Shown here piece by piece: positions 1,079 to 17,845 of a DNA stretch of 64,000 bases (positions are counted from its first letter, which is position 1; every line of letters begins with the position of its first letter). The notes under the pieces were generated by a model. It saw nothing but the letters and a program-made list of their open reading frames with translations. It had not been told where the DNA came from and searched no databases. Made by a program: the position numbers and the translations under genes. Source of the stretch: Acidobacteriota bacterium (GTDB taxonomy: Bacteria > Acidobacteriota > UBA6911 > JACQSX01). The stretch is from assembly GCA_036507075.1 (NCBI GenBank), contig DASXQR010000097.1, positions 1-64,000 on the forward strand, given 5' to 3'.

Positions 1079-1507
1079 TTATGGGACGGTCAGTCCCTCG
1101 GTCCTGGCCAACTTTCCCTGGATGCGATCGAAGGTAAAAAACGCGTCCGCCCGCAACACCAAAGCCGAAGCAACATGGAGAATATCGAGGGTACGGGCGC
1201 CAATTTGCGGTGTTCGCTTCCGGGCAATCTGCTTGGCTTTCTCGAACACCGCGACGCCCCATGGTTGTAATACGAACACACCGGCATCGATATCCTTCTT
1301 AAGCAGCGCATTGGCAGCTTTGATTTTGGAAGGGAGAAGTTCCTTGCGAAAGAGGCGCTGCAAAATCGCATTGGTGAGCTCCAGTTCACCGAAAGGGGTC
1401 AGAAGTATGGGCAGGCTGGCTCGTTTCATTTGTGCAGCAGCGAGAGCGGAGTTTGCATCCAGAACGTACAACGAGACCAGAAAGCTCGGATCGGCGTATG
1501 AGCTCAA
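1079..1507 (-). CDS. vapC: type II TA toxin, VapC/PIN domain
   Basis: N-terminal 'YADPSFLVSLY' and C-terminal 'RTLDILHVASAL...FFTFDRIQ' PIN motifs; ATGA overlap with the upstream antitoxin. Confidence 0.85.
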   Translation of the reverse strand: MSSYADPSFLVSLYVLDANSALAAAQMKRASLPILLTPFGELELTNAILQRLFRKELLPSKIKAANALLKKDIDAGVFVLQPWGVAVFEKAKQIARKRTPQIGARTLDILHVASALVLRADAFFTFDRIQGKLARTEGLTVP

Positions 1508-1746
1508 TAGCGGCCTCGCTCGCGGGAGACAAGTTCCGCTCCCGTCACTTCTGCAGTCTTGCCGCCGTAGATTTTTTTCAAGCGCGCCAGGAAATCTGGA
1601 CGCCGAGAAGAAACCGGAGATTTCGCAGGGATCAGCCGAGCAATGATCCGTTTGCGCTTAGTGATCTGAATCTCTTCGCCTTCGCGGAGAAGATCCTCAA
1701 CTTCCGAAAATCGATAGCGGAGATCACGCACTGTAGCTTTTCTCAT
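1504..1746 (-). CDS. Phd/YefM-family (prevent-host-death) antitoxin
   Basis: MRKATVRDLRYRFSEVEDLLREGEEIQITKRKRIIARLIP; start reassigned to ATG at 1746. Confidence 0.85.
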   Translation of the reverse strand: MRKATVRDLRYRFSEVEDLLREGEEIQITKRKRIIARLIPAKSPVSSRRPDFLARLKKIYGGKTAEVTGAELVSRERGRY

Positions 1747-1783
1747 GTGATGCAATTTAGCATCACTTTGGCTTTCCAGGCAA
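1747..1783 (-). promoter_or_regulatory. probable leaderless sigma70 promoter with overlapping TA operator palindrome
   Basis: Minus strand reads TTGCCT-N18-TAAATT with TG extension, 7 nt before the ATG. Inverted repeat GTGATGC-N6-GCATCAC (1747..1766) straddles the -10 box. Confidence 0.6.
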
Positions 1784-1919
1784 GCCCCCAGCCGAGGCAG
1801 TGAGGTTCGATAAGCGTTAACGGCTCGCCGTCGCGGCCGCACATCTGAACCTGCCCCTCCCGTGGCGCGTCCCGAAGCACAGAGGGGTCAACATCCGCCA
1901 GAATCTGCTCGACCCTGGC

Positions 1920-1987
1920 ACAGCGCTTTGTTGCTCCGACAGATCAATGTACAAAGAATCGGTCTCTGGATAGTAATTCAGCTTCAT
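1920..1987 (-). pseudogene. truncated DUF2283-like antitoxin gene
   Basis: MKLNYYPETDSLYIDLSEQQSA, after which similarity is lost. Confidence 0.6.
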
Positions 1988-2225
1988 GGTTTAAGCCGCC
2001 GATCTAGAAATGCGTTATGAATAGTGACTTTATCATCCAGAGTATGACTCTCAAGAAACGTCCCTCATTTCGGGTAATTTCCGCCCAGAAACGGTAACGG
2101 TTTGTTTTTCTGCGGCTCTGATCGAATCGGATGCTCGAGGGCGCGGATGCACCACTCCATCTTCAGGTAGGGCCGCTGCGCAATACTTCCTTCTCGAAGT
2201 ATTCAGTGAACCGATAGCTTGCCAA
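1984..2225 (-). pseudogene. frameshifted small toxin-like partner of the DUF2283 gene
   Basis: Fragments in shifting frames: YRFTEYFEKEVLR / RPYLKMEW / NRYRFWAEI / DDKVTIHNAFLDRRLKP*. Confidence 0.55.
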
Positions 2226-2306
2226 GTTGAGAAAAAATATCGGAGCGGCAGTCGGGTCCCACAATCAGTCCGATCGGCTTGAACCCGGGCCTTCCTGATT
2301 TAATCT

Positions 2307-2396
2307 TCATGAGATTCGCCGACCAGTCGTGAACTGGTTGATTAAGTCAGTCGCCCCTCGGATGTCTTCCAGGAGCTTCTTCGTTTCAAGCTGCAT
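2307..2396 (-). pseudogene. truncated HEPN (DUF86-like) toxin gene
   Basis: MQLETKKLLEDIRGATDLINQFTTG stops after 29 aa; overlaps the end of the MNT gene as in MNT-DUF86 pairs. Confidence 0.6.
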
Positions 2397-2697
2397 AGAG
2401 CATCGTGCGGGTCTGGTTCACTTTTTCAAGAAAATAATGATTCCTAATCGCGCCGGCCACCACCAGGTCAACTGACCGGTCGAACAATTCCTGCAATGAC
2501 TCAAGCAGTCCGGAATACATATCCGCGTGTTGTCCCGATTGAAGGGCCAAGAATTCCACCAGAAAATCCAAATCACTCTGCTGCGCGTCAAACTGTCTGC
2601 CTTCGGCAGCCCAGCCAAACAGTTCAAACCGCTTAACCCGATACTTCCGGCAAAGTCGGCCGATCTGCTCGCGCTTCTGTTCAATGATCGGAATCAT
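2386..2697 (-). CDS. minimal nucleotidyltransferase (MNT) antitoxin, possibly degenerate
   Basis: 'LFGWAA...SDLDFLVEF...VDLV' motif; the canonical GS is GW here. Confidence 0.8.
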   Translation of the reverse strand: MIPIIEQKREQIGRLCRKYRVKRFELFGWAAEGRQFDAQQSDLDFLVEFLALQSGQHADMYSGLLESLQELFDRSVDLVVAGAIRNHYFLEKVNQTRTMLYAA

Positions 2698-2754
2698 TCG
2701 TTTGGTTCCCTCGGGCTATTATGAGACTGTTCATCGTGCTTCGTCGCGATGGTT

Positions 2755-2985
2755 TCACTTTGCTGCCAGTTCACGCGCGTGGGAAAGGTCGCGCCGGTTC
2801 ACGGGACGCAATTGAGGCAGCTGCACGGTAGTCACGGCCACCGTTTGACTGGTCAGTGTGACAAACTCAACCGCATAGGCTGCGCCGCCTTGATGAATGT
2901 GCACCACTGTACCCACATCACCGGCTCGCAACCCCTCGTCGGGAAGATGCTGCGTTAACACAATACAATCGTGTTCTTTGATCAT
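2755..2985 (-). CDS. DUF4926-family protein
   Basis: MIKEHDCIVLTQHLPDEGLRAGDVGTVVHIH...YAVEF; GGAGG RBS before ATG 2985. Confidence 0.8.
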   Translation of the reverse strand: MIKEHDCIVLTQHLPDEGLRAGDVGTVVHIHQGGAAYAVEFVTLTSQTVAVTTVQLPQLRPVNRRDLSHARELAAK

Positions 2986-3323
2986 AATTCCTCCACAGGA
3001 TACGCGGTGATGAGTCGCGGCGCAATCTGCCCTTTGTCCATCTGCCAGACCGTGCACACGAGCGGCTGGCGGCCATCCGGCACATAAGCTTGCCTTCCAC
3101 TTCATATCGGCGACCAAAACCGGTTTCTTTCAATTTGCTCACCTCATGCTGGCGGCCATGTTCGCGCAAGGCACGGGCCAGGATTGTCCACTCTTCCGGG
3201 CGACAGCCGAACTGCGCAAAGAACCGGGCCATGCTCGCGCCGAAACGATGCTGGCTGATTGAGCAGACACCTGATAATCTTGCCCTCCTCGACAACAGCT
3301 CCTTCAGCGTTTTGCACTCTCAT
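2982..3323 (-). pseudogene. frameshifted DUF6883-like gene (usual partner of DUF4926)
   Basis: MRVQNAEGAVVEEGKII..., ARFFAQFG...LARALREH...GRRYEVEG and VWQMDKGQIAPRLITAYP lie in different frames. Confidence 0.65.
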
Positions 3324-4157: not shown

Positions 4158-5312
4158 TTACCCGGGCGAAGTTGCTGGAGAGAAGTTTCGAACTTTCCCG
4201 ATCGTGATCCGCCGGGAGCGATAGACTTCGGCGACCCCGACAGCTGAAAGCAAGCGCCGATTTGGAGAGTCCTCTTGCAGTTCCTGATGAGCCAGGAGAG
4301 TTCGCACTACGTCGAGGGTGGCTGGCTCGCTCCAAATTGGCCACGTCCAATACGTGTCGAAACTCTTGCGTCCCCGGAAACCAGTGGTAGCAACGAACGA
4401 TGCTTGAGGTGCTGTTGGCAACAACGGAATTCCTTCGATCGCAAGGCGATTCGCTCCAAGTACGGTTCCTTGTTTCTTGCGGACGGGATCGCCGCTCGGG
4501 TTTCGCCAGCGGAGCGCGTAGCGGACGTCATCAATCGGGTCCCAGCGGAGTGTGAGATTTTCTACCGGGTCATCGTAGCACCAGAGCGAAAAGAGTGCCT
4601 TCTCGAGGTGGTTAGCTGTCGTGGCAAGGACAATGTTGCGCATGAACGCGAGGAAATGCTGGTGGCCCGCGCCAGCCATCGTTCGAAGCCCTGTATCCTG
4701 AATTCTGCCAGCTTCATCTGTAACAGCTTCGCACCCGAAAGCCGCCGCGAAATCGGCGATACTTCGGTCATCGTGGGAGGCCGCCTGGGAAGCAGTCGCG
4801 GCAAAGTGGGCGAAGTCTGGTGCGGAGAGAGTTAAGTCGTCAGCAATCAGCAGGTGCGGACAGGCGATCTGGAGCAAGCCGAGTCTTGCCTCCTCGATAG
4901 CTACCTCGAACGACAGGATCTGCTCAGGCAGCCTTTCCCGCAGACGTTGACCGGATAAGCGTTGCTTCTTCAGAGTTTTCTCCCGCTCCCTCTCGTCATT
5001 GCCTTGCTGTGCACAAGCGGCAATGAACTTCGCTTCCCACTGCTTGGCCTCCTGACGGCGGCCGCGAAAAGCTCCGTATCGACACGCAGTGGCGACTTCG
5101 TCGAGCAGTTCATTTGAACTGATTTCGGGCTCTAGAATCATTCTCGGCCGCCACGCTCCGCGGTGGGGCTGCCAGCACATCACGACTCGGTGCTCCGGCA
5201 AACTGAGCGACAGCAGGCGCAACGTTCCGAGCGAAGCTAGGAAGGCGAGTGGATTTCCTCCGTCTAATCCAATGAACAGTACGCCATCATGGTTTTCCTT
5301 GCTTGAATTCAT
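4158..5312 (-). CDS. csb3: type I-G Cascade large subunit, Csb3/Cas8u2-like
   Basis: 'GLDGGNPLAFLASLGTLR', 'LRWDP...RYALRW.NPS', 'GANRLAIEG.PL' and 'WPIW' motifs; ATGA-coupled to cas3. Confidence 0.85.
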   Translation of the reverse strand: MNSSKENHDGVLFIGLDGGNPLAFLASLGTLRLLSLSLPEHRVVMCWQPHRGAWRPRMILEPEISSNELLDEVATACRYGAFRGRRQEAKQWEAKFIAACAQQGNDEREREKTLKKQRLSGQRLRERLPEQILSFEVAIEEARLGLLQIACPHLLIADDLTLSAPDFAHFAATASQAASHDDRSIADFAAAFGCEAVTDEAGRIQDTGLRTMAGAGHQHFLAFMRNIVLATTANHLEKALFSLWCYDDPVENLTLRWDPIDDVRYALRWRNPSGDPVRKKQGTVLGANRLAIEGIPLLPTAPQASFVATTGFRGRKSFDTYWTWPIWSEPATLDVVRTLLAHQELQEDSPNRRLLSAVGVAEVYRSRRITIGKVRNFSPATSPG

Positions 5313-8300
5313 GCGACTGCTCCTTTGACGTGGGGATCACGCTGGGCAATGTTCTTTTCCGCTTCGTCTTCGCTTTGGCGGTGATCGGCCAACATGAATA
5401 TGGCTTCCAGCCAAGCCAAGCCCCACCAACCATACCGCCGAACAAGCCGCCAAAAGCGTTCGGCAGCGCCGCTACTGAGTCGGTGCGCCGGAATCCACCG
5501 TTCTCGATCGCTCTGACTGATGGAAAGCCCATCAAAGACACCGCGAAGATCGATCCCAGGGGCGCCTTCGTCGAGTACGACTTGCGCCAACGGCCGGCAA
5601 AATCCGTGGTGGCAAGCTATCACATGGAGAACAAGGTCGCGGTCAATGTCGTCTCCGGTAATCAGCTGGTTAAAATCCTGGACAATTTTGAGTGAAACTT
5701 GTTCGTGCCTGAATCCATCGGGCAATCCGCTTGCATCCCAGGCGTTGCTTCGTGCATCACGATCGTCCACGAGCCCTCCGGACTTGGCGTAGAGCATCGA
5801 TGCCAGAGCTGCGCGAAGTGTGTTCCCTCCGTGTAGAAAAGCTTGGAATCGCGGGTCGGCTTTGCCAAGGTCATGGAGATGTCCGGTTACCAACATGCTC
5901 TGGACGATACTATTGCCAAAACCGCACTGTCGTGCGAAATCGGCGGCACGCCGTGCAACGCCATCGCTGTGCGCCTTGAGTGAGATGTTAGTGGTCGCGG
6001 ATGCGCTATCATCTTCCGTTGTGTAGGTCTCGGGTTGCATGAACTCCAATCGGCGATCAACAGGCAGCCGCTGTGATCCACGAATGACCACTCCGCCGAA
6101 GGGATGCGGCAGCCACTTGGCACGTGTATCCTCGACCACTAGGGTAATCAATCGGCGCACGTGCTCGGCTATTTGTGCAGACGCAGCAATTCCGCGCAAC
6201 AAGTCGCGGATCTCACGACGCTCAAGCTCTGCTTCCGGATCGGACAGAAGCTTTAGCAATTCCGCGTGCTCGTCGGGTTCGGACAGCTCCGCAGTTTCGC
6301 GCCAGTTCTTCACCAAGACACGGTGGAGCCGGAGCATCGCGTGCCGCCGGGCCTCGACATAGCAGTGATCCGCAACGTCGATCTGTGCCACATCGGCGAT
6401 TCGGAGTGGAATGTGTCCAAAATCGTCCCAACCACGGAGACTGGCGGGCAATACGATGGTGTCACCAGGACGAAGGTTGTCCCCCTGGGCGTCGAGAAAC
6501 TCACTGTCCTCCGGGCCTCGCCAGAGGACGCCGAAGGCAATCGGTTCCGGCCTAGGGTGCAACTCGACTTCACCCTCGGTACTTCCCGCTTCGATATCCG
6601 CAATCGCGGCGTCACATCGAAACCCTTCCTCCGCAGAACGCCACCAGCGACGGAAAGCCCACAACGGCACGGGGAGGCATTCAAGCACGGTCGGGGGACA
6701 GAGCGAGACTGCTTCGACGGCTCGGCTTCGGAGGCGATCACGTAGACGGCTTTTTTCGACATCCGCCAGATCGTCTTTAACATCGACGCTGCCATGCTCG
6801 GGCAGGTCTGCTCGCCAGCATACTTGCACTTCGGGCGCGCCGCGCTGCGGCCCGTGCAGGAAAACCGCCAAGTTCGGATCAGGACGCGGAACAGGCGATG
6901 TCTGTACCCAACAATCGACGTGAGCAGGCAACAATACCGGGGCATCCGGAGAGGGCGGAACAAGCATCGAACGCTGCTCCGGTTCAACCTGAGCAACCAG
7001 CTGACTAATTGTCGTGATACCGAAGTCGATTTCTGGCTCTGATAGATCGAACCCGACAGCGTGTTCGGTGAGCCACTGCCATGTGTTAGGGATCGCTTGG
7101 CCGTAAACGGGATCCACCACCGCCGTGTCTTTCTGATCGGCGCGGATGACAATCGCGCCGCGAGCGTCGCAGTCGGTCCGTCCGATCCGGTTGAGCCGTC
7201 CGAAACGCTGCTGCAAGGCGTCGAGACTCGCACACTCACTCACCATGCCATCAAAATCCAAATTCGCCCCCACCTCGAGGCACTGCGTCGCAACAACAAT
7301 CGCGGGACGGGGTACCGCTGGTCGCTTGCTCGACGTTCCAAACCAGATGAGCAAACCGCGCGCTGAGTTGGGTGGGCTCGCATATGGCGCCCAGTTTTCC
7401 ATAAGCTCGTCGCGATCGATGGAGCGCATCCTGCCGGTCAGCAGGACAGCGTCAAACTCGCCTGGCAGCAGCGTGGCAAGCTGGCGGATGTGTCTCCAAT
7501 CGACGTCCGGGTCTGCGTCTCCTGGATCGCGGACAGCACAAAGTAACCGGTAGATCATGCGAGCGGTATAGACTCGGTTTACCAAAATGGCGATTCGCTG
7601 GCGTGAGTTAGAGACTAATTCGGCAGCTCGGACGACCAGTTCGGCCGTGAGTTCGTCGAGTGCCCGCTTTCCCTTTGCCTCTGTCGCCACGATTAGACGC
7701 GTTGGCTTGGACGAAGTCACGCGACGACGCAGCACTTCGCAGTCGCGCAAGTCCTCGCTCTTTTCGTTTACATCGAGCCGCAACACGTCGTTAATTCCAG
7801 GCGGCGGAGTCGCGGACATGATCGTGAAATGGAACGGCCCGCCGAGGTGCTCCCGTGCCCACCGCTCCCCACGGTAGCGTTCGACCGCCTGCATCGTCTG
7901 AAGGAATGGGTTCGCGCAATGAGCTTCATCAAGAATGATCAATGCATCGTTTCCTGCCAGACCTGCATGGATCGGCCATGCCTTGAACGATCGGCCATAA
8001 CCGCGAAACAGCAGACGCGAACCGATTTGATCGACCGTACTGGCAATCACACACGGCTGGGTGGGCGTGCGTGCCCATGCATCGTCGCGGTACATACCAC
8101 CGCGAAGCTGGTAGCAGGTGAGTGGCGGCGCATCGGTTGTCCCATTCACTTTCCGTAACGCCTGGGCGACTTCCCAAAGAATTCCGTTACTCGCAGCATC
8201 CAGTCGCTCGGCAAGATTCAAGGCGTGCTCGAAAGCCTCGTCAACAATGACGCGTCTATCAACGACGAAAAGAATGCGTCGCACCGCCGTGCGTTCCTGT

Positions 8301-8515
8301 AATGGCAGCTCGGCTTGGCAAGCCAAGGCAAAGACAGCGATATCCAGGCAGGAGGTCTTACCACTGCCGGTTGGCAAGGCTATAGCTTCCGGCCAGACGC
8401 GCTGAGGCGGACGCGCCGTGAGCACACGTTCCACGAGTCGTTCTTGCCAACGGAAGGGGTTGCAATCACTCACCGCGCGAAAGAACTCACCGAAGTCTCC
8501 GAGTCCGATGCTCAA
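5309..8515 (-). CDS. cas3: type I-G Cas3 helicase-nuclease with C-terminal HD domain
   Basis: Helicase motifs LPTGSGKT, DEAH, MSAT, VATQ.LEVG and QRFGRLNR; C-terminal HD motifs HSDGV, LHDLGK, RHE, CHHG and LADH. Start reassigned to TTG 8515 (GGAGGAGG RBS, TTGA overlap with csb2). Confidence 0.95.
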   Translation of the reverse strand: MSIGLGDFGEFFRAVSDCNPFRWQERLVERVLTARPPQRVWPEAIALPTGSGKTSCLDIAVFALACQAELPLQERTAVRRILFVVDRRVIVDEAFEHALNLAERLDAASNGILWEVAQALRKVNGTTDAPPLTCYQLRGGMYRDDAWARTPTQPCVIASTVDQIGSRLLFRGYGRSFKAWPIHAGLAGNDALIILDEAHCANPFLQTMQAVERYRGERWAREHLGGPFHFTIMSATPPPGINDVLRLDVNEKSEDLRDCEVLRRRVTSSKPTRLIVATEAKGKRALDELTAELVVRAAELVSNSRQRIAILVNRVYTARMIYRLLCAVRDPGDADPDVDWRHIRQLATLLPGEFDAVLLTGRMRSIDRDELMENWAPYASPPNSARGLLIWFGTSSKRPAVPRPAIVVATQCLEVGANLDFDGMVSECASLDALQQRFGRLNRIGRTDCDARGAIVIRADQKDTAVVDPVYGQAIPNTWQWLTEHAVGFDLSEPEIDFGITTISQLVAQVEPEQRSMLVPPSPDAPVLLPAHVDCWVQTSPVPRPDPNLAVFLHGPQRGAPEVQVCWRADLPEHGSVDVKDDLADVEKSRLRDRLRSRAVEAVSLCPPTVLECLPVPLWAFRRWWRSAEEGFRCDAAIADIEAGSTEGEVELHPRPEPIAFGVLWRGPEDSEFLDAQGDNLRPGDTIVLPASLRGWDDFGHIPLRIADVAQIDVADHCYVEARRHAMLRLHRVLVKNWRETAELSEPDEHAELLKLLSDPEAELERREIRDLLRGIAASAQIAEHVRRLITLVVEDTRAKWLPHPFGGVVIRGSQRLPVDRRLEFMQPETYTTEDDSASATTNISLKAHSDGVARRAADFARQCGFGNSIVQSMLVTGHLHDLGKADPRFQAFLHGGNTLRAALASMLYAKSGGLVDDRDARSNAWDASGLPDGFRHEQVSLKIVQDFNQLITGDDIDRDLVLHVIACHHGFCRPLAQVVLDEGAPGIDLRGVFDGLSISQSDRERWIPAHRLSSGAAERFWRLVRRYGWWGLAWLEAIFMLADHRQSEDEAEKNIAQRDPHVKGAVA

Positions 8516-9996
8516 GTCTCGTCCTCCTCCACGGCGAGCGGGCGACATAGGCCGTATCCGCGATACCGACCAGCCCCAAGCAATACCGGACCGTGTACGG
8601 CGCACGGAAAGGTGATGACTGCGTGGGTCTGCCGAATCATTCCGTCGTCGGTTTTGCGCTGGATGCGGGGCATCTGGCGAGTGTGTGGCGAACCGATGAA
8701 CATCGACACAGGAGCCGCAATCACATCTTGGGGTTGGGGCAAGCCGATCCGTTCACAGCCATCAGCGATGGATCTCTCTATTTGGGAATGTGGGTCGTCA
8801 AACTTCGCATGCCGATCGATTGCTATGGGCGTGACCGTTGCCCAACGCCGCGACGGCCCGGTCCAGGTCTCGCTCCGCAATGCGTGACGGTATGCCTGTC
8901 CCTCATCGAGTTCGAGCACGCACTGGCCAAGTTTGCCGAGCACCAGTCGGATTTGCTTAGGCCAGCCTGCATCATCGAAAAGAAAAGCACCAAGACATCG
9001 CGCGATCTCCGACTGTGTTATATCGGACGGCACCGCAACGGCGAGACCAAGCACGTGACCGTCGGCATGCTTACGACCGACATGCGGCAAAGGCACAAAC
9101 GCCAAGTGTCCGGCGGTTCTCTCACTGCGTTTTCCGTCAGCTTGGTGACCACTGACCCATTCCGGCGGCGGTTGCACTGGGGACATGGACATGATCGTGT
9201 CCCGCAGCGCCTTCGTGAGCAGCAGCGTGGATTCCAACCCGAATGACCGACCTTCAATCTGTCGCAGGATGATCAAGCTCTGCGCAAGATAGGGTGAGGG
9301 GATCTCCGTGCGGTCAGCTATCACCATTGCGGGCGAGTATCCCTGCCACACCGATCCAGCAGGGCGCAGACCCGCATCAAACCGCGACCTAAGTTGCGTG
9401 AGTCGGCCGGGGCAAAAGATCCTGAGGCGATGGCGCGACCCGTCGTCGTTCAAAGGCCGGAGGATTTGGCGATTATTCAGATTAGGCACGGTGGGGGGCA
9501 CTTCAAACTGGTCAGCCACCCACATCTGCACCATCGACGCCGAATGTCCAACCGCTGTCACCTTGCCGGCGAGGGACGCTAAAGCAGTTGACTGATCTGG
9601 CGATGGCTGTGCATCCCTCCAAAGTAGATGCACAACCGGATTGTCCGGGATTGCCACAGGAAACTGCCGCGGCTGCCGGTCGCGTCCGATGACCAGGGAA
9701 CCGGCTGACATGAGCGGTTTGTGTTTCTTGATGGGACTGGACGTGTCATTGACCGGGACGAAAGTCGTGACTGATTCGGGCGATCGGGCTGGCGACGCTA
9801 CAACGATCGGCGGCGACTGACGTTCGAGCCACTCAAGTGCGCCACGTTCTCGTTCATCTCCCTCGGTTTCAAAATGCGCCGCGGCCAAGGCCATGAAAAC
9901 GCGGTCCGGATGTGGCGGCCATTCCGCTTTCTCGCGATCCGCCGGGTGCGTCGCCATCGCCCAGCCGTTTAGGTAGTGAATGCCAATGCTAAACAT
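8512..9996 (-). CDS. csb2: type I-G Csb2 (Cas5-Cas6 fusion)
   Basis: 'EWPPHPDRVFMALAA', 'LPHVG...ADGHVLG', 'WATVTP' and the G-rich C-terminal 'GPVLLGAGRYRGYGLC' loop. Confidence 0.95.
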   Translation of the reverse strand: MFSIGIHYLNGWAMATHPADREKAEWPPHPDRVFMALAAAHFETEGDERERGALEWLERQSPPIVVASPARSPESVTTFVPVNDTSSPIKKHKPLMSAGSLVIGRDRQPRQFPVAIPDNPVVHLLWRDAQPSPDQSTALASLAGKVTAVGHSASMVQMWVADQFEVPPTVPNLNNRQILRPLNDDGSRHRLRIFCPGRLTQLRSRFDAGLRPAGSVWQGYSPAMVIADRTEIPSPYLAQSLIILRQIEGRSFGLESTLLLTKALRDTIMSMSPVQPPPEWVSGHQADGKRSERTAGHLAFVPLPHVGRKHADGHVLGLAVAVPSDITQSEIARCLGAFLFDDAGWPKQIRLVLGKLGQCVLELDEGQAYRHALRSETWTGPSRRWATVTPIAIDRHAKFDDPHSQIERSIADGCERIGLPQPQDVIAAPVSMFIGSPHTRQMPRIQRKTDDGMIRQTHAVITFPCAVHGPVLLGAGRYRGYGLCRPLAVEEDET

Positions 9997-11228
9997 TACT
10001 CCTCCCCGACAGCCTGGGAAGCCAGTTCCTGGCTCCTGCGAACCAACTCAATAAGCTGCGGCGACGGTGTGAGCACAAGTTCCTTCTCACGCCATGGCAA
10101 GCCTGCATCCTTCGCAGCTTGCAGCGCGTCGTTGAAAAGAGAAATGGCAGCGTTACCCGAAAGGTTGAACTTCGCCGGTTCTTCGCCTGGTTTATCCAGC
10201 AGTTCCCACATGACGGGCTCAGTGGGGACGAGCTGGCAACGCGATCGTAAATCGCAGCCTTGTTCCTCAGTAAGAGCCCCCGCGCAAAGTGCAAGCGCCG
10301 CCAGCGTGGCTCGTGCAGCAGCATCAATCTTTCCATCAGACTTGGCATCGCCATTCAGAGGAAATCGCAGGCGGCGGAGCGCTGGCAAGGACACAACGGT
10401 CGTTTGCACGGCATGACGGATGGTCACCCCACCATCGGCAATTGTGGGTGTTACATTGCCATGATTCGCCTCGGACGGTCGACCGTCTTTGCCAAGCTTG
10501 ACGGGCTCCTTCTTAGTCTTGCTTACAGTAGCGGCCTTTTCAGGATCGAGCGTCCATCCGATGCCATGTGTCTCGGCAGCCTTGTAGAGCGGGCCGGCGC
10601 TAAGTTGTATTTGCAGCGGGTCGATACGGCTGCTCGTCTTCTTCTCGATCTGTGCATCGATGCCAATGATTTCAGAAACCACCGCTCTCGCGAACTTGGC
10701 TCCGAGCCCTCCTTTTGGACCTGTCGAATCCCACATCCCAAACACGAGTGCAGTGGGACAGATTTCGAACAACGCTGTCGCATTCCGCCCATCGACGTTG
10801 TCCAACCGTTTGCCTAATTCACTTTTTCGGAACGGCTTTCCATCCATCAAGCTGTCGCGAATGATCGCGTCTGCGACGCGATGTGGCATTTCGAGGCTGG
10901 TAATCCGCAGTACTTTCTCAAGCTGATTGCCTTTGAAATCGACCGTGATCACAGGGAGTGAGATTTGGTCCGCTTCCCAGGCATCCAACAGGGCCAGCTC
11001 CATCCGATTTGCCTGCGACTGCACAGAATCGAGTAATACGCGATCCGCCTTTTTGGTTTCGCTGTCGACGCGCAACCCGACGGTGGCATATCTCCCGCCT
11101 TCATACGTTGGCGGAAAAATAGTGGACCCCTCACCTCCAGCTGGCTGCAATTTCGTTACAGAGCGAAATGCGGCAGCTGTTCCGCGAATGGCGTGCTGAA
11201 GCTTTTCCAGTGTCAAGCTGTCACTCAT
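9996..11228 (-). CDS. csb1: type I-G Cas7 backbone subunit Csb1
   Basis: 'LQPAGG...FPPTY', 'LLDSVQSQANRME', 'PHRVADA' and 'PTALVFGMWDS' motifs. Start reassigned to ATG 11228 (GAGGAGG RBS). Confidence 0.95.
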   Translation of the reverse strand: MSDSLTLEKLQHAIRGTAAAFRSVTKLQPAGGEGSTIFPPTYEGGRYATVGLRVDSETKKADRVLLDSVQSQANRMELALLDAWEADQISLPVITVDFKGNQLEKVLRITSLEMPHRVADAIIRDSLMDGKPFRKSELGKRLDNVDGRNATALFEICPTALVFGMWDSTGPKGGLGAKFARAVVSEIIGIDAQIEKKTSSRIDPLQIQLSAGPLYKAAETHGIGWTLDPEKAATVSKTKKEPVKLGKDGRPSEANHGNVTPTIADGGVTIRHAVQTTVVSLPALRRLRFPLNGDAKSDGKIDAAARATLAALALCAGALTEEQGCDLRSRCQLVPTEPVMWELLDKPGEEPAKFNLSGNAAISLFNDALQAAKDAGLPWREKELVLTPSPQLIELVRRSQELASQAVGEE

Positions 11229-11354
11229 TTTCTCCTCCTCTTCGAATTGTTCTTGGTATGTGAAAAGATAAAAGCCAATCGAAATAACCCTGAGCTCACC
11301 AAAAGTCTGCCATCCCAGAGTATGAGCTAGCGGCCCGTTTGCGGACATCCGGCC

Positions 11355-11906
11355 TCAGTCTTGAAGCTGCTGCTTTAGTCGCGTCCAAAATCGGGAATAC
11401 CACTGGCGCAATGTTTCGGGTCTTACTCGAAGGTTCTTTGAAAGCAGGTCATAACGTTCACCGTCGAGCAGGGCCAAAATGGCTTCCTGTCGTCGATGGG
11501 GAAGTCCGTTTAGCTCCCGCTGTGCTACTGCCGCAATTTCAGTGACCAGGACTGATCTTTCTGTGGCGTGCAGGCGTTCTGGCCGGAAAGAAACGTGCGG
11601 TCGTGCAAGAATGTCGAATGCGCGCGTCTCTTTGCACATCATGCTAGGCTGTCGTTCAATGACCGCAATTGCGTTCTTACAGCGATTGTTTTTTCGATAG
11701 TACTGAACGCGTACGCACTTCGCGATTTGACAGATTAGCCCCTCTTGATTCTCGGTCCAATCTATTGGGCTGAGCTGCGCGCTCCGTTTCTTGTCATAAA
11801 CTAGAACCTTCAGGCAGACGTCTTGATAAGCGTCATCGATGAACGTTCTGGTTATAAATGGAGGCACACGCAGTTTGAATCTCTCGAGTTGTTCAATCAT
11901 GTTCAT
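11355..11906 (-). CDS. divergent ECF-type (sigma70 group 4) RNA polymerase sigma factor
   Basis: 183 aa. Region-2-like 'DDAYQDVCLKV' and 'LICQIAKCVRVQYYRK'; region-4-like HTH 'LNGLPHRRQEAILALLDGERYDLLSKNLRVRPETLRQWYSRFWTRLKQQL'. Confidence 0.75.
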   Translation of the reverse strand: MNMIEQLERFKLRVPPFITRTFIDDAYQDVCLKVLVYDKKRSAQLSPIDWTENQEGLICQIAKCVRVQYYRKNNRCKNAIAVIERQPSMMCKETRAFDILARPHVSFRPERLHATERSVLVTEIAAVAQRELNGLPHRRQEAILALLDGERYDLLSKNLRVRPETLRQWYSRFWTRLKQQLQD

Positions 11907-11950
11907 ATCTGATTAATCGCCGGCACGATCAATTTGTGACACCTTTCTTT

Positions 11951-11971
11951 AAAACTTGCCCATTCAATAAA
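11951..11971 (-). promoter_or_regulatory. self-target (partial protospacer plus TTT PAM) of the mini-array spacer
   Basis: Minus strand reads TTT-ATTGAATGGGCAAGTTTT; the spacer 5' end reads ATTGATTGGGCAAGTTTT (17/18 identical). Confidence 0.85.
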
Positions 11972-11979
11972 GTTTATAG

Positions 11980-12007
11980 TTGACTTCATGGACGGCGATG
12001 TTACGCT
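11980..12007 (+). promoter_or_regulatory. probable sigma70 promoter of the mini-array
   Basis: TTGACT-N16-TACGCT with TG extension, ~25 nt upstream of repeat 1. Confidence 0.55.
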
Positions 12008-12032
12008 GACAGGCTGATAGGAAGCAACGAAT

Positions 12033-12142
12033 TCCGTTCCAGGATCTTTTTCCTGGCCCCATTGAAGCATTGATTGGGCAAGTTTTTTTGGATCACCAGC
12101 ATGAACAATCCGCGGTCATCAAGACCGCGGCCCCATTGAAGT
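12033..12142 (+). CRISPR. CRISPR mini-array: two non-identical type I-G-like repeats and one 38-nt spacer
   Basis: R1 12033..12068 TCCGTTCCAGGATCTTTTTCCTGGCCCCATTGAAGC (stem CCAGGA/TCCTGG); spacer 12069..12106; R2 12107..12142 AATCCGCGGTCATCAAGACCGCGGCCCCATTGAAGT (stem CCGCGGTC/GACCGCGG). Both end in GGCCCCATTGAAG, typical of I-G repeats. Confidence 0.85.
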
Positions 12143-12227
12143 ATTGACGTGGTTGGGTCTTAGCCTAGCGTGGCTTGCGCCATTCTCACCTAGATCCAAG
12201 GCTGGCACGGCTGTGCTCATTGGACGT

Positions 12228-12290
12228 CGTCCAGCACAATTAACCAGATGGCCACAATGATGTCTTGCCCAAGCCTGTGGGCAGGTTGCG
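12228..12290 (-). pseudogene. relic of a cas3 5' region (Walker A)
   Basis: Minus strand encodes NLPTGLGKTS and then, after a 1-nt shift, IVAIWLIVL, matching the I-G Cas3 motif I context. Confidence 0.55.
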
Positions 12291-12649
12291 GTCACCTTGA
12301 TCTGATAAGCGACAGTCAATCAGAATTCCTTATGCGCTTCCTTGACCGGCTCCGGCTTCATGGATCAACACACGGTCTGCTGAACCGCGACCCCTGCGCG
12401 CCAGGACCTGACGGATCGCGGTATTGAGGGTGACTGGAATGATACTCCTGGCCTAATCCACGCATCTTTCGACGGCTCCGCCACGTCAACCACGCTCCGA
12501 TATCCAAGTTCTACCTCTCTCGCACGACAAGGGAGGTCGTGCCAGCCAATAATTTCTGTGGAGGGCGGCCGACCAAGCTTGCCGATCTCCCCGTCTTATT
12601 CCCACTTTGAGAACACCCCGTAATTTCGACCAAGCACGGCCTTGCAGAA

Positions 12650-12960
12650 GCACCCCTGCGCGCCAAAAGTTGGCGCGGCCACACGGCTGGTATGCTTCCG
12701 CCCTGTCGCTTACATGCAGCTTCAACCGCAAGTGCCCGCAGTCTGGTAACAAATCCCCGCGCCCGTGCGGGCCGAAGTCCAAATTTACGAGGGAAAGGGG
12801 GCTGTAAGCTCGAATTCTAAGACGTTACAGGCCGCAATCAAGCTTTATTGGAAATTGCAAAACTGGTTAACAACAAAGGCACAAAGGTATCCCGGGTCAA
12901 CTCTGTGCCGTTATTGGCTAGCGCGGTTGAGTTCGTTCCATGTCTGCAACCTTATCAACT
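12650..12960. repeat. copy A of a ~310-bp dispersed direct repeat containing a minus-strand promoter and operator
   Basis: Aligns with 15904..16223; shared core TCGAATTCTAAGACGTTACAGGC.GCAATCAAGCTTTATTGGAAATTGCAAAACTG. Confidence 0.9.
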
Positions 12961-15006: not shown

Positions 15007-15429
15007 TTAACCTGGTCGCTTTGCACGTTGAAACTTGCTACTCACCAGGCCGACAATGGCCTGGGCCGCATCGACGGCCCGGCCTCCTTGCTCCTGGGTA
15101 TAAGACTGAAACGGGACGGCAGGGGGAGCAAGGGCATCCGGGTAACGAGTGGGGATATAGTATTGATCCAGGATCCGGCCTGGCCCAATATGCGTCGAAA
15201 AATCACTGTCCATCTGCGAGCACATCTCAGCCAATTGCGCCACCGAGTGAATCGGAACAGAGCGATGACCCGCCCCAACCAGAAACCCCTTCAAGGCCTT
15301 CTGGCTTGACTGCTCGGCCATAAAACAAGCGTCGGAGTAGTCCCCTCGCTCTTGATGGTTGCGGGCCACCACCAGGTCATGCTCAGCCTGGAGCAGCCAG
15401 CGCAAGCCCACTTCATGTCTCGGCTTCAT
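15007..15429 (-). CDS. HEPN domain protein (MNT-HEPN toxin)
   Basis: 'WLLQAEHDL...ACFMAEQSSQKALKG...HS...LDQYYIPTRYPD'. Confidence 0.9.
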   Translation of the reverse strand: MKPRHEVGLRWLLQAEHDLVVARNHQERGDYSDACFMAEQSSQKALKGFLVGAGHRSVPIHSVAQLAEMCSQMDSDFSTHIGPGRILDQYYIPTRYPDALAPPAVPFQSYTQEQGGRAVDAAQAIVGLVSSKFQRAKRPG

Positions 15430-15482
15430 AGACCGTCTTCCCGTTCAACCCACCGAATCAGACCACATCTTCCACGAGCGCT

Positions 15483-15797
15483 TCACCGCTCAGCTTCATA
15501 CACCACTTTCCCGTCGCGGAGCGCCTCGGTAATGAAAGCGTTGTCCTCCTGCAGCATTGCTTCAATCTCTTGCGGAGTGTAGACCAGGATATCGGCTCGA
15601 ACGCCGGCAGGGCACAGACGAGCCATTGCCTCGAGCCTGGCGACAAAAGGCTCCTGCGTCTCCTTGATCACCAATAGATCGAAATCGCTGGCGGCATCAG
15701 CGTCGCCACGGGCAGCAGAACCAAACAGGATGATCCGCTGCGGACGATAAGGCCGAAGCGCCTCCAATAAGGCATCAAGAGATGCGTTCATGGACAA
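15483..15797 (-). CDS. minimal nucleotidyltransferase (MNT) antitoxin
   Basis: 'ILFGSAARGDADAASDFDLLVI...DILVYTPQE'. Confidence 0.9.
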   Translation of the reverse strand: MSMNASLDALLEALRPYRPQRIILFGSAARGDADAASDFDLLVIKETQEPFVARLEAMARLCPAGVRADILVYTPQEIEAMLQEDNAFITEALRDGKVVYEAER

Positions 15798-15903: not shown

Positions 15904-16223
15904 GCACCGCTGAGAGGCGAGAGTTCGCGCGACCAGACAGCTGGCATGCTTCCGCCCTGTCATTTACAGCCAGCTTCAGACGCAAGTGGCTGCAATCCGG
16001 TGAACAAGTCCCCGCGCCCGTGCAGGCCGAAGTCCAAATTTACGAGCTAAGAGGGGCTGTAAGATCGAATTCTAAGACGTTACAGGCGGCAATCAAGCTT
16101 TATTGGAAATTGCAAAACTGATTAACCACAAAGACACAAAGGGCACAAAGGTGTCCGGGTTAACTCTGCGCCGTTAGTGGCTCGGATGGCCCACTTGTTT
16201 CCCGGTTTGCGACCTCATCAACT
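15904..16223. repeat. copy B of the ~310-bp direct repeat
   Basis: Aligns with 12650..12960; lies directly upstream of the MNT-HEPN pair on the minus strand. Confidence 0.9.
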
Positions 16224-16789: not shown

Positions 16790-17845
16790 TCAGCGCTCGA
16801 CATTTTTGCGGGCGTAAGACCGCCCTCCCGCGGCACGTTCGACCGGGCGGCTCGGTTTTTTTGCCGGAGGGGTCCGATAGAGCGAGGCTGCCAGGAGACA
16901 TTGCTCCGAGACAAGATTTCGCAGCGATGCCGGCTCAAGCACCTGCGCCTGTGCGCCGAAACTCAAGATCCATTTCTGGAGATCGACCCCGGGATGGACA
17001 TGCATCGTGAGCTCAACACCCAAAGGTCTAACCGTCAGGGTCTGTGAGGGATGCCACTGGTGCTCACTGACCAGAACTGCGGCCTTGCCGGTAAACCGAA
17101 TTCGCACCTGCTCTGGTTCACCCTGCCAGATTTCAAAACTCGCTTCGAACGCAGCCTGAGGCGATGTCCCCGCGGGCACAAAAGTTTGATCCGTGGCACG
17201 CAAGTCGCGAATGCGGCTGATGTGGAAGGTCCGCATTCCTCGCCGCTCGTGACAGAACCCCCAGATGTACAGATTCGGATGGGCCGTGATAATCGCATAA
17301 GGGTCGACAAGCCTCCGTCGAACTTCGCCGGTGTTGAGGGCCTGGTAGACAATTTCAGTCGTTTTGTGATTTATGATCGCGTCACCGACCTGCTCATCAA
17401 TATAGCGGGGACTGAGCGCCGGGTGAATGTTTCTTGGTCCGGTAATAAGGATTGCAGCCTCTGCCTGCTGCAGAAAGTCACGCTTCTTGTCGGTCAGCCC
17501 CGCGAACATTTTTCCGCACAGCGATCGCAGGGCTGCGGCTCCAGGGAGCTGCTGCTGCTGCGCAGTGATGTTTGCAGAATGGAGCGCCATCAACTCATGT
17601 GCGTCCAAAGGCATCGGCAGCGAGGTGCGACCGTCAAGAAACCATACCACCTGCTTGCCGCGCATTTCGGAGTAAATCTGAAACCCGGCATCTTCCAGTG
17701 CAATGACATCACGTTGGATCGTCCGCAACGCGGGGACGACGTCCGGTTCAAGGGTTTGCATTAGATCGGAGTACGTCGCTCCGTAACGCAATTCAGCCAA
17801 GCGACGCAGAATCTTCCATTGTCGGATTAGCTGCCGATTTCGCAC
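16790..17845 (-). CDS. HTH-WYL-WCX transcriptional regulator
   Basis: N-terminal wHTH 'RTIQRDVIALEDAGF', WYL 'RLVDPY...LYIWGFCHERRGMRTFHISRI', C-terminal 'WILSFGAQAQVLEPASLR'. Confidence 0.92.
   Translation of the reverse strand: MRNRQLIRQWKILRRLAELRYGATYSDLMQTLEPDVVPALRTIQRDVIALEDAGFQIYSEMRGKQVVWFLDGRTSLPMPLDAHELMALHSANITAQQQQLPGAAALRSLCGKMFAGLTDKKRDFLQQAEAAILITGPRNIHPALSPRYIDEQVGDAIINHKTTEIVYQALNTGEVRRRLVDPYAIITAHPNLYIWGFCHERRGMRTFHISRIRDLRATDQTFVPAGTSPQAAFEASFEIWQGEPEQVRIRFTGKAAVLVSEHQWHPSQTLTVRPLGVELTMHVHPGVDLQKWILSFGAQAQVLEPASLRNLVSEQCLLAASLYRTPPAKKPSRPVERAAGGRSYARKNVER

Follow-up and report, generated by a model that had tools for sequence, protein, structure and literature searches.

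The window, a 64,000-nucleotide stretch of an Acidobacteriota assembly, holds a type I-G CRISPR-Cas operon that comprises cas7g, csb2, cas3g and cas8g and opens with a gene for a small sigma-like protein. On the opposite strand a degenerate mini-array of two repeats adjoins the operon, and the start of its spacer pairs with a site between the two (Table 1).

Table 1. Coordinates of the I-G operon, the mini-array and the features between them
Feature	Position	Strand	Remarks
cas8g-type large subunit (Cas3-extension family)	4158..5312	-	NF049934
cas3g	5309..8605	-	TIGR02621, 688 bits; helicase and HD motifs intact
csb2 (Cas5/Cas6 fusion)	8512..9996	-	TIGR02165
cas7g (csb1)	9996..11228	-	PF09617 4e-54, TIGR02570
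ECF-sigma-like gene	11355..11906	-	183 aa; divergent from array, first gene of the operon
Possible leader ORF	11903..11932	-	9 codons, TTG start; stop overlaps sigma ATG
Target (protospacer)	11951..11968	-	17/18 match to spacer start; sole mismatch at position 6
PAM TTT (I-G TTN)	11969..11971	-	three bases 5' of target
Predicted sigma-70-type guide-RNA promoter	11980..12007	+	TTGACT, 16 nt, TACGCT; -35 is 9 bp from PAM
Repeat 1 (degenerate I-G)	12033..12068	+	6-bp hairpin of its own, 4 nt, 8-nt handle ATTGAAGC
Pseudo-spacer	12069..12106	+	38 nt, taking repeat 2 as 36 nt; first 18 nt pair with the target before the sigma gene
Repeat 2	12107..12142	+	8-bp hairpin, -15.7 kcal/mol; ends ATTGAAGT

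The operon and its first gene

An earlier reading made from the sequence alone (the sequence-only reading) had described the catalytic motifs of Cas3 as intact, which is borne out, and in an alignment of 91 sequences the C-terminal His458 of Csb2 is conserved in 99%. Searched against the PDB, the sequence of this Cas7 has no match at E 0.001, which points to a distant branch. The adaptation module (cas4/1, cas2) and a linked array are absent from the locus, and a search of the assembly, 95.7% complete, gave no match to Cas1, which could mean a system in decay. A single I-G array was found in the genome (G000:C193:30700-31120, locus L001); it is remote from the operon, at the end of contig C193 with no cas genes adjoining on that contig side, and has one truncated unit and a degenerate last repeat. 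Self-matches of its six spacers end at position 15 or earlier, and in two of the six they do not extend to position 14.

Downstream of cas8g, a toxin-antitoxin-type cluster (1079-3295) combines PIN with Phd/YefM, a nucleotidyltransferase, DUF4926 and DUF6883. On the other side, direct repeats of about 240 bp (12650-12887 and 15904-16142, spaced 3,255 bp) bound what looks, from its sequence, like an insertion, with a 429-aa ORF without a Pfam match and a nucleotidyltransferase-HEPN pair (15007-15797) between them. The repeats and what they enclose stand between the mini-array and a gene for a WYL-type regulator (16790-17845); such a gene also occurs upstream of the I-G operon in L046, L077, L106 and L146, and is a possible second control layer for these operons.

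What is the protein at the head of the operon? It scores below the cut-off of TIGR02937, like its other single-sequence scores against curated cut-offs, and single-sequence searches returned only itself and one repeat-protein HTH match, with no sequence relatives. The Atlas places it at 0.96-0.98 to sigma clusters, two of the top three of which are viral. A profile of 13 locus sigmas (the window's and 12 positional counterparts) matches ECF SigE at 1e-19. A structure model (pLDDT 80) has ECF sigmas as its top fold matches (E 6e-4, whole-chain TM 0.27-0.36), evidence that is not fully independent because the alignment beneath it took in ordinary ECF sigmas; the alignment-free fold (pLDDT 40) was unusable. 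The predicted architecture is that of an ECF factor, with sigma-2 and sigma-4 domains, no sigma-3, and region 4 ending at the C-terminus. By profile and model, then, the 183-aa protein is a predicted ECF-fold sigma-like transcription factor. Complex prediction with Cas7g and Cas8g scored 0.00, which counts neither for nor against contact, and an ECF promoter pattern is not enriched (3/12 vs 2/27, p 0.16). A ribosome-site-like purine run lies 7 nt upstream of the possible leader ORF, whose standing as a true ORF is speculative.

The clearest promoter in the window, judged from its motifs, would drive the array strand: it takes the top array-strand score in a crude scan with consensus weights, and stays below the threshold of the standard scan. 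In the sigma direction the standard scan of the window finds none and the crude scan three weak candidates (scores 9.4-10.1), each of which the target overlaps or sits just downstream of.

The mini-array and its target

Both repeats fold into a hairpin followed by a 12-nt unpaired tail, as does the I-G array repeat on contig C193, to which repeat 1 is identical at 18/36 positions and repeat 2 at 22/36. This geometry is that reported for I-G in Thioalkalivibrio sulfidiphilus, where Csb2 cuts 4 nt after the hairpin, leaving an 8-nt handle, and the PAM is TTN (10.1101/2022.08.08.503147). The hairpin of repeat 2 is likely the 3' hairpin bound by Csb2. The T. sulfidiphilus Cascade is also like this one in its subunits (Cas7, Csb2, Cas8g, Cas3), 36-nt repeat and flipped sixth base; unlike that system as described, the present locus has a regulatory guide and a sigma gene (10.1101/2022.08.08.503147). 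An Rfam search gave no matches, and RNA folding of 12005-12260 (z -1.8) was uninformative.

The sequence-only reading had claimed a pairing that starts at the first spacer base, tolerates a mismatch at position 6 and lies behind a TTT PAM before the sigma gene, and every part of this stands. Mismatches resume at positions 19, 20, 21 and 23, and 45-62 bp separate the target from the sigma start codon at 11906. With up to 2 mismatches allowed, the first 18 spacer nucleotides match no other non-self site in the 6.1 Mb assembly, and no other TTN site there pairs with the spacer at 11 positions or more once every sixth is skipped. When the local DNA was resampled 20,000 times with a Markov model, the best match never rose above 15/18. 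For the 36 nt that follow repeat 2, the genome contains no seed target behind TTN. Contigs from other studies contain the same DNA (X2 without a difference across 11017-12863, X4 with one across 11936-12086), which is evidence of its presence only.

Could the spacer be an ordinary antiviral one, aimed at a phage or plasmid? One plasmid matches 26/28 of its bases (E 0.01), but the site has no TTN PAM, a mismatch at position 3 and 74% coverage, and the plasmid is from marine Roseobacteraceae. Neither the 50,697 phage records nor the 72,556 plasmid records contain a match at 80% coverage, and exact matches to two spacer patterns in IMG/VR number 0. The full-length 38-nt match that the sequence-only reading had named as a better explanation of the spacer is thus found in neither the phage and plasmid records nor IMG/VR, and we consider this origin the least probable of those weighed here.

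The arrangement itself has close precedents. Regulatory mini-arrays of the CreR kind (I-B, I-E, I-F1 and V-A; 10.1101/2023.03.10.532045, 10.1101/2023.03.03.530964) are described with two degenerate repeats, a handle in the first and a hairpin in the second, divergent transcription, and a partial, PAM-flanked match before the cas operon with sixth-base mismatches. The window has a degenerate stand-alone mini-CRISPR adjoining a cas operon, an upstream repeat that retains the handle and processing geometry of the cognate repeat, and a partial PAM-proximal match with cognate PAM and sixth-base mismatches. It differs from CreR as described in being I-G with pre-bound Cas3, in having a sigma-like gene as the first controlled gene, and in the extra tolerance at positions 3, 9 and 15 shown by its relatives (below). 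CreR has been tested in I-B, I-E and V-A, and I-U (I-G) cases were predicted by manual search (10.1101/2023.03.10.532045), where Figure S7 may show I-G loci of this sort. The kind of pairing is known (CreR/crlRNA), with I-U cases already predicted in print; in the parts of 10.1101/2023.03.03.530964 covered here, there is no mention of I-G, I-U or sigma.

Guides of related I-G loci

A first scan for related loci with the single Cas7 sequence gave none, and 0/4 same-family genomes match this Cas7. The survey rests on the best 80 of 588 genome loci and the best 80 of 587 metagenome loci with related Cas7, together with loci from phylum searches: 167 distinct loci, with L033 (genome G049) counted only as a negative in denominators. 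Across these, handle-led spacers with at least 11 matches, sixth bases skipped, number 21 with a TTN target and 16 with a different PAM, against 0.23 and 4.1 in a swapped-locus control. The period is specific: skipping every sixth base yields the 21 TTN matches, and skipping every fifth, seventh or eighth yields 9-10.

A second scan was run without PAM or position weights on 52 two-repeat candidates, 41 of them isolated, with the target within 1.5 kb. Among the 41 isolated arrays upstream of related cas7g, 26 match locally at 15/20 or better, and all 26 targets lie behind TTN, compared with 11/205 in the null, one of them TTN. The TTN PAM proposed by the sequence-only reading, TTT in the window and reported for I-G, is thus confirmed in relatives. 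Exceptions are seven of the 41 arrays with a non-TTN best match and one more with only 12/20; L181 was removed from the array set as a chance match.

The 33 guides among the 41 mini-arrays, window included, that have at least 14 matches and a TTN PAM draw a consistent profile. The fraction matched is 0.36, 0.33 and 0.33 at positions 6, 12 and 18, and 85, 73 and 70% at positions 3, 9 and 15; the remaining positions of 1-17 are matched in at least 85% and up to 100%, and those beyond 18 fall to 0.15-0.45. Mismatches at 3, 9 and 15 (24/99) exceed those at other positions (19 mismatches), a pattern noticed before it was tested, and 22 of the 24 are not wobble pairs; this tolerance may reflect a mid-segment feature of the I-G Cas7. 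Each of the four possible TTN PAMs is represented. In 14 of the 33, repeat 1 folds with a tail of 12 unpaired nucleotides, compared with 25 of 660 shuffles.

The sequence-only reading had taken the spacer for a selected regulatory guide and not accidental autoimmunity. By sequence comparison this is well supported, because unrelated spacers in 33 of 41 I-G mini-arrays show one signature of PAM, sixth-base mismatches and length. The same profile bears on the possibility that the mini-array is a relic or accident, a self-acquired spacer or old duplication decayed to harmlessness after adaptation was lost. The missing cas1, the remote and truncated I-G array and a sigma without sequence relatives would all fit such a history, but in 33 unrelated spacers decay would not have left the PAM and exactly positions 1-5, 7-11 and 13-17 intact, nor would it keep the hairpin geometry with new stem sequence, and we hold it to be very improbable.

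Cas3 accompanies many of these guides: of the 32 mini-array loci with a Cas3 ORF, 28 have the HD motif and three of the remaining four are cut by the locus end; 14 mini-array loci have no Cas3 in the locus DNA. Six loci (L093, L117, L143, L147, L183 and L185) encode Cas3 and Cas8g as a single ORF of about 1,360-1,440 aa, the two being separate in the window. Short remnants resembling a Cas3 N-terminus stand before cas7g in L094, L039, L043 and L092, which suggests replacement of an older CRISPR locus. In 17 of 39 loci, where 6.4 are expected, there is overlap between the target and the top-scoring sigma-70-like promoter of the cas strand, a count to be read with the crude weights in mind and with the preference of both targets and promoters for AT-rich DNA. 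The mini-arrays of L089 and L191 are each some 850 bp away from their target, behind related reverse-strand genes apparently transcribed from a promoter beside the target.

Another small gene recurs before cas7g. Its product, a conserved protein of some 70 aa outside any Pfam family (for instance L148:6170-6373), is encoded between the guide target, or the sigma, and cas7g in L046, L085, L112, L117, L148, L162, L167 (two copies), L147, L045, L132, L047, L088 and L108; it is absent from the window. All 11 such loci with 1.5 kb of upstream DNA have a mini-array. The protein is a candidate second cargo or Cascade accessory.

Sigma genes, repression and activation

ECF-like ORFs stand directly before cas7g in 14 loci; the upstream ORF of L098 was excluded from the set as LuxR-like. 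Wherever upstream DNA is available for sigma loci a mini-array is found (13/13), and 12 of the 13 have a TTN target near the sigma start, ten scoring at least 12 (the swapped maximum is 6.5 of 156) and two more with a position-3 mismatch; in L045 the array is present and a target was not found. Among the 107 loci with 1.5 kb upstream, arrays occur in 11/11 sigma loci vs 27/96 others, figures in which two arrays per side come from other scans or by hand (the automatic scan alone gives 9/11 and 25/96) and kin are non-independent. The sigmas themselves are at most 31% identical across loci, and about 25% where the Cas7 proteins are 77-87% identical. On a Cas7 tree of 99 rows they are confined to one Planctomycetota-rich half, interleaved with array-only loci, with 10 changes against a shuffled mean of 12.2; the close relative L094 has none upstream of cas7g. 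Targets in sigma loci face one way in 8 cases and the other in 4, mixed even inside one well-supported clade.

A sigma gene beside a guide inevitably recalls dCas12f-sigmaE, in which an ECF sigma gene also lies beside a Cas effector and the guide is aimed upstream of its own locus (PMC13472631). As described there, the nuclease is dead, the sigma carries an extended C-terminal domain, and transcription runs one way from a start site (TSS) at a constant 45-48 bp from the TAM. Might the I-G locus be a class 1 counterpart, in which a Cascade-Cas3 still able to cleave draws in the locus sigma through its partial R-loop and turns transcription on? A guide-loaded Cascade-Cas3 would then bring sigma and RNA polymerase to a fixed distance from the PAM, in positive feedback, and whether one and the same complex cuts or activates a gene would depend solely on guide length. 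The tight coupling of sigma gene and mini-array speaks for such a scheme, as does the great divergence of the sigmas; in sigma loci the housekeeping promoter of the sigma direction scores lower (10.7 vs 11.9, p 0.055), and transcription beginning 45-48 bp past the PAM would start some 15-18 nt ahead of the sigma ATG. However, target orientation is not fixed as in dCas12f-sigmaE, and targets facing both ways favour repression over activation of that style. The effector here is also not nuclease-dead by its motifs, and most guides, among them those of 27 loci, occur where no sigma gene was found. Sigmas at some 25% identity beside such conserved Cas7 are unlike a co-evolved interface: they are short and interchangeable, and the 183-aa protein has no extended C-terminal domain beyond region 4 (PMC13472631). 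We give recruitment of sigma by a loaded Cascade-Cas3 little credence, and a class 1 counterpart of dCas12f-sigmaE equally little.

The sequence-only reading had proposed TSS mapping as the way to tell repression from activation. This does not separate them, since type I-C guides repress 4.8- to 60-fold even though their targets are 37-46 bp upstream of the TSS (10.1101/2024.12.27.630466). The I-C guides belong to CRISIS, which with CreTA/CrePA (10.1101/2024.01.05.574328) offers another likeness: a variable non-cas cargo in the cas operon under a crRNA-like guide, reported with targets at that distance, mismatches at 6 and 12, and release on anti-CRISPR action. In the window and 11 more target loci the non-cas gene directly behind the target is the sigma-like gene. 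The cargos described there are enzymes or toxins in I-C, I-F and I-B, unlike the ECF-fold transcription factor predicted here. As far as covered, the CRISIS, CreP and phage crlRNA (10.1101/2024.10.29.618823) papers have guide-repressed cargo and no sigma factor or I-G case.

On these analogies, the locus is probably under a self-brake of the CreR/crlRNA type, in which the guide binds before the sigma-cas operon and does not cut. The mini-array would be transcribed away from the operon by a housekeeping-type promoter, and Csb2, to go by the repeat geometry, would cut both hairpins to give a crRNA-like guide with an 8-nt handle. Cascade-Cas3 would bind the TTT site in an R-loop spanning roughly three Cas7 segments (18 of the 36-38 nt), long enough to hold the DNA and too short for cleavage. 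The bound complex would obstruct the operon (sigma-cas7g-csb2-cas3g-cas8g) at its promoter region, and would probably shut the promoter of the guide itself as well. Once Cascade was titrated by crRNAs or blocked by anti-CRISPRs, the brake would lift and the Cas proteins and the sigma-like protein would be made.

The target abuts the best array-strand -35 in 9/11 divergent sigma loci vs 3/20 non-sigma loci; in the window 9 bp separate the -35 from the PAM. Cascade poised just upstream of that -35 might curb mainly the guide and any co-transcribed genes, affecting the operon indirectly. This -35 test was chosen post hoc with crude weights, however, and CreA has the same geometry between two divergent promoters, both repressed (10.1101/2023.03.10.532045). 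A guide without another job is also hard to select for, and a guide that limits chiefly itself seems to us quite unlikely.

Within the self-brake, cleavage-free binding at 18 bp is the weakest step. The sequence-only reading had held that partial R-loops do not license Cas3, a view drawn from other subtypes. In I-G as described, Cas3 is a stable part of Cascade that is required to form R-loops efficiently and that nicks inside them (10.1101/2022.08.08.503147). Because I-G Cas3 is pre-bound in this way, the step is extrapolated from the other subtypes. The conserved stop near position 18, together with intact HD motifs, suggests that a cleavage threshold exists.

What the sigma would do under the brake is less clear. 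A CRISPR-supervised cargo, released on Cascade failure, is the reading we tentatively favour, short of thinking it probable, because the sigma is 25% identical beside an 87% identical Cas7, patchy on the tree and absent in L094, with mostly viral top Atlas clusters. A role as amplifier of cas transcription is possible and rather less likely, and a mere passenger is doubtful.

Judged from sequence and analogy, the guide is real, selected and of a known kind; its function in the I-G subtype we infer. In the literature searched, with subscription journals largely outside it, we did not find a description of a recurrent sigma cargo or an I-G mismatch map, nor of a guide-controlled sigma gene in type I. 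Together, these comparisons show that I-G systems, with Cas3 always on board, have repeatedly evolved guides of 17-18 nt against their own DNA. The 33 guides amount to a natural tolerance map, in which positions 6, 12 and 18 are free, 3, 9 and 15 are loose and pairing stops near 18, and which could be used directly for truncated-guide repression with a minimal type I effector. A sigma under such a brake would convert the loss of Cascade into a wider transcriptional response.
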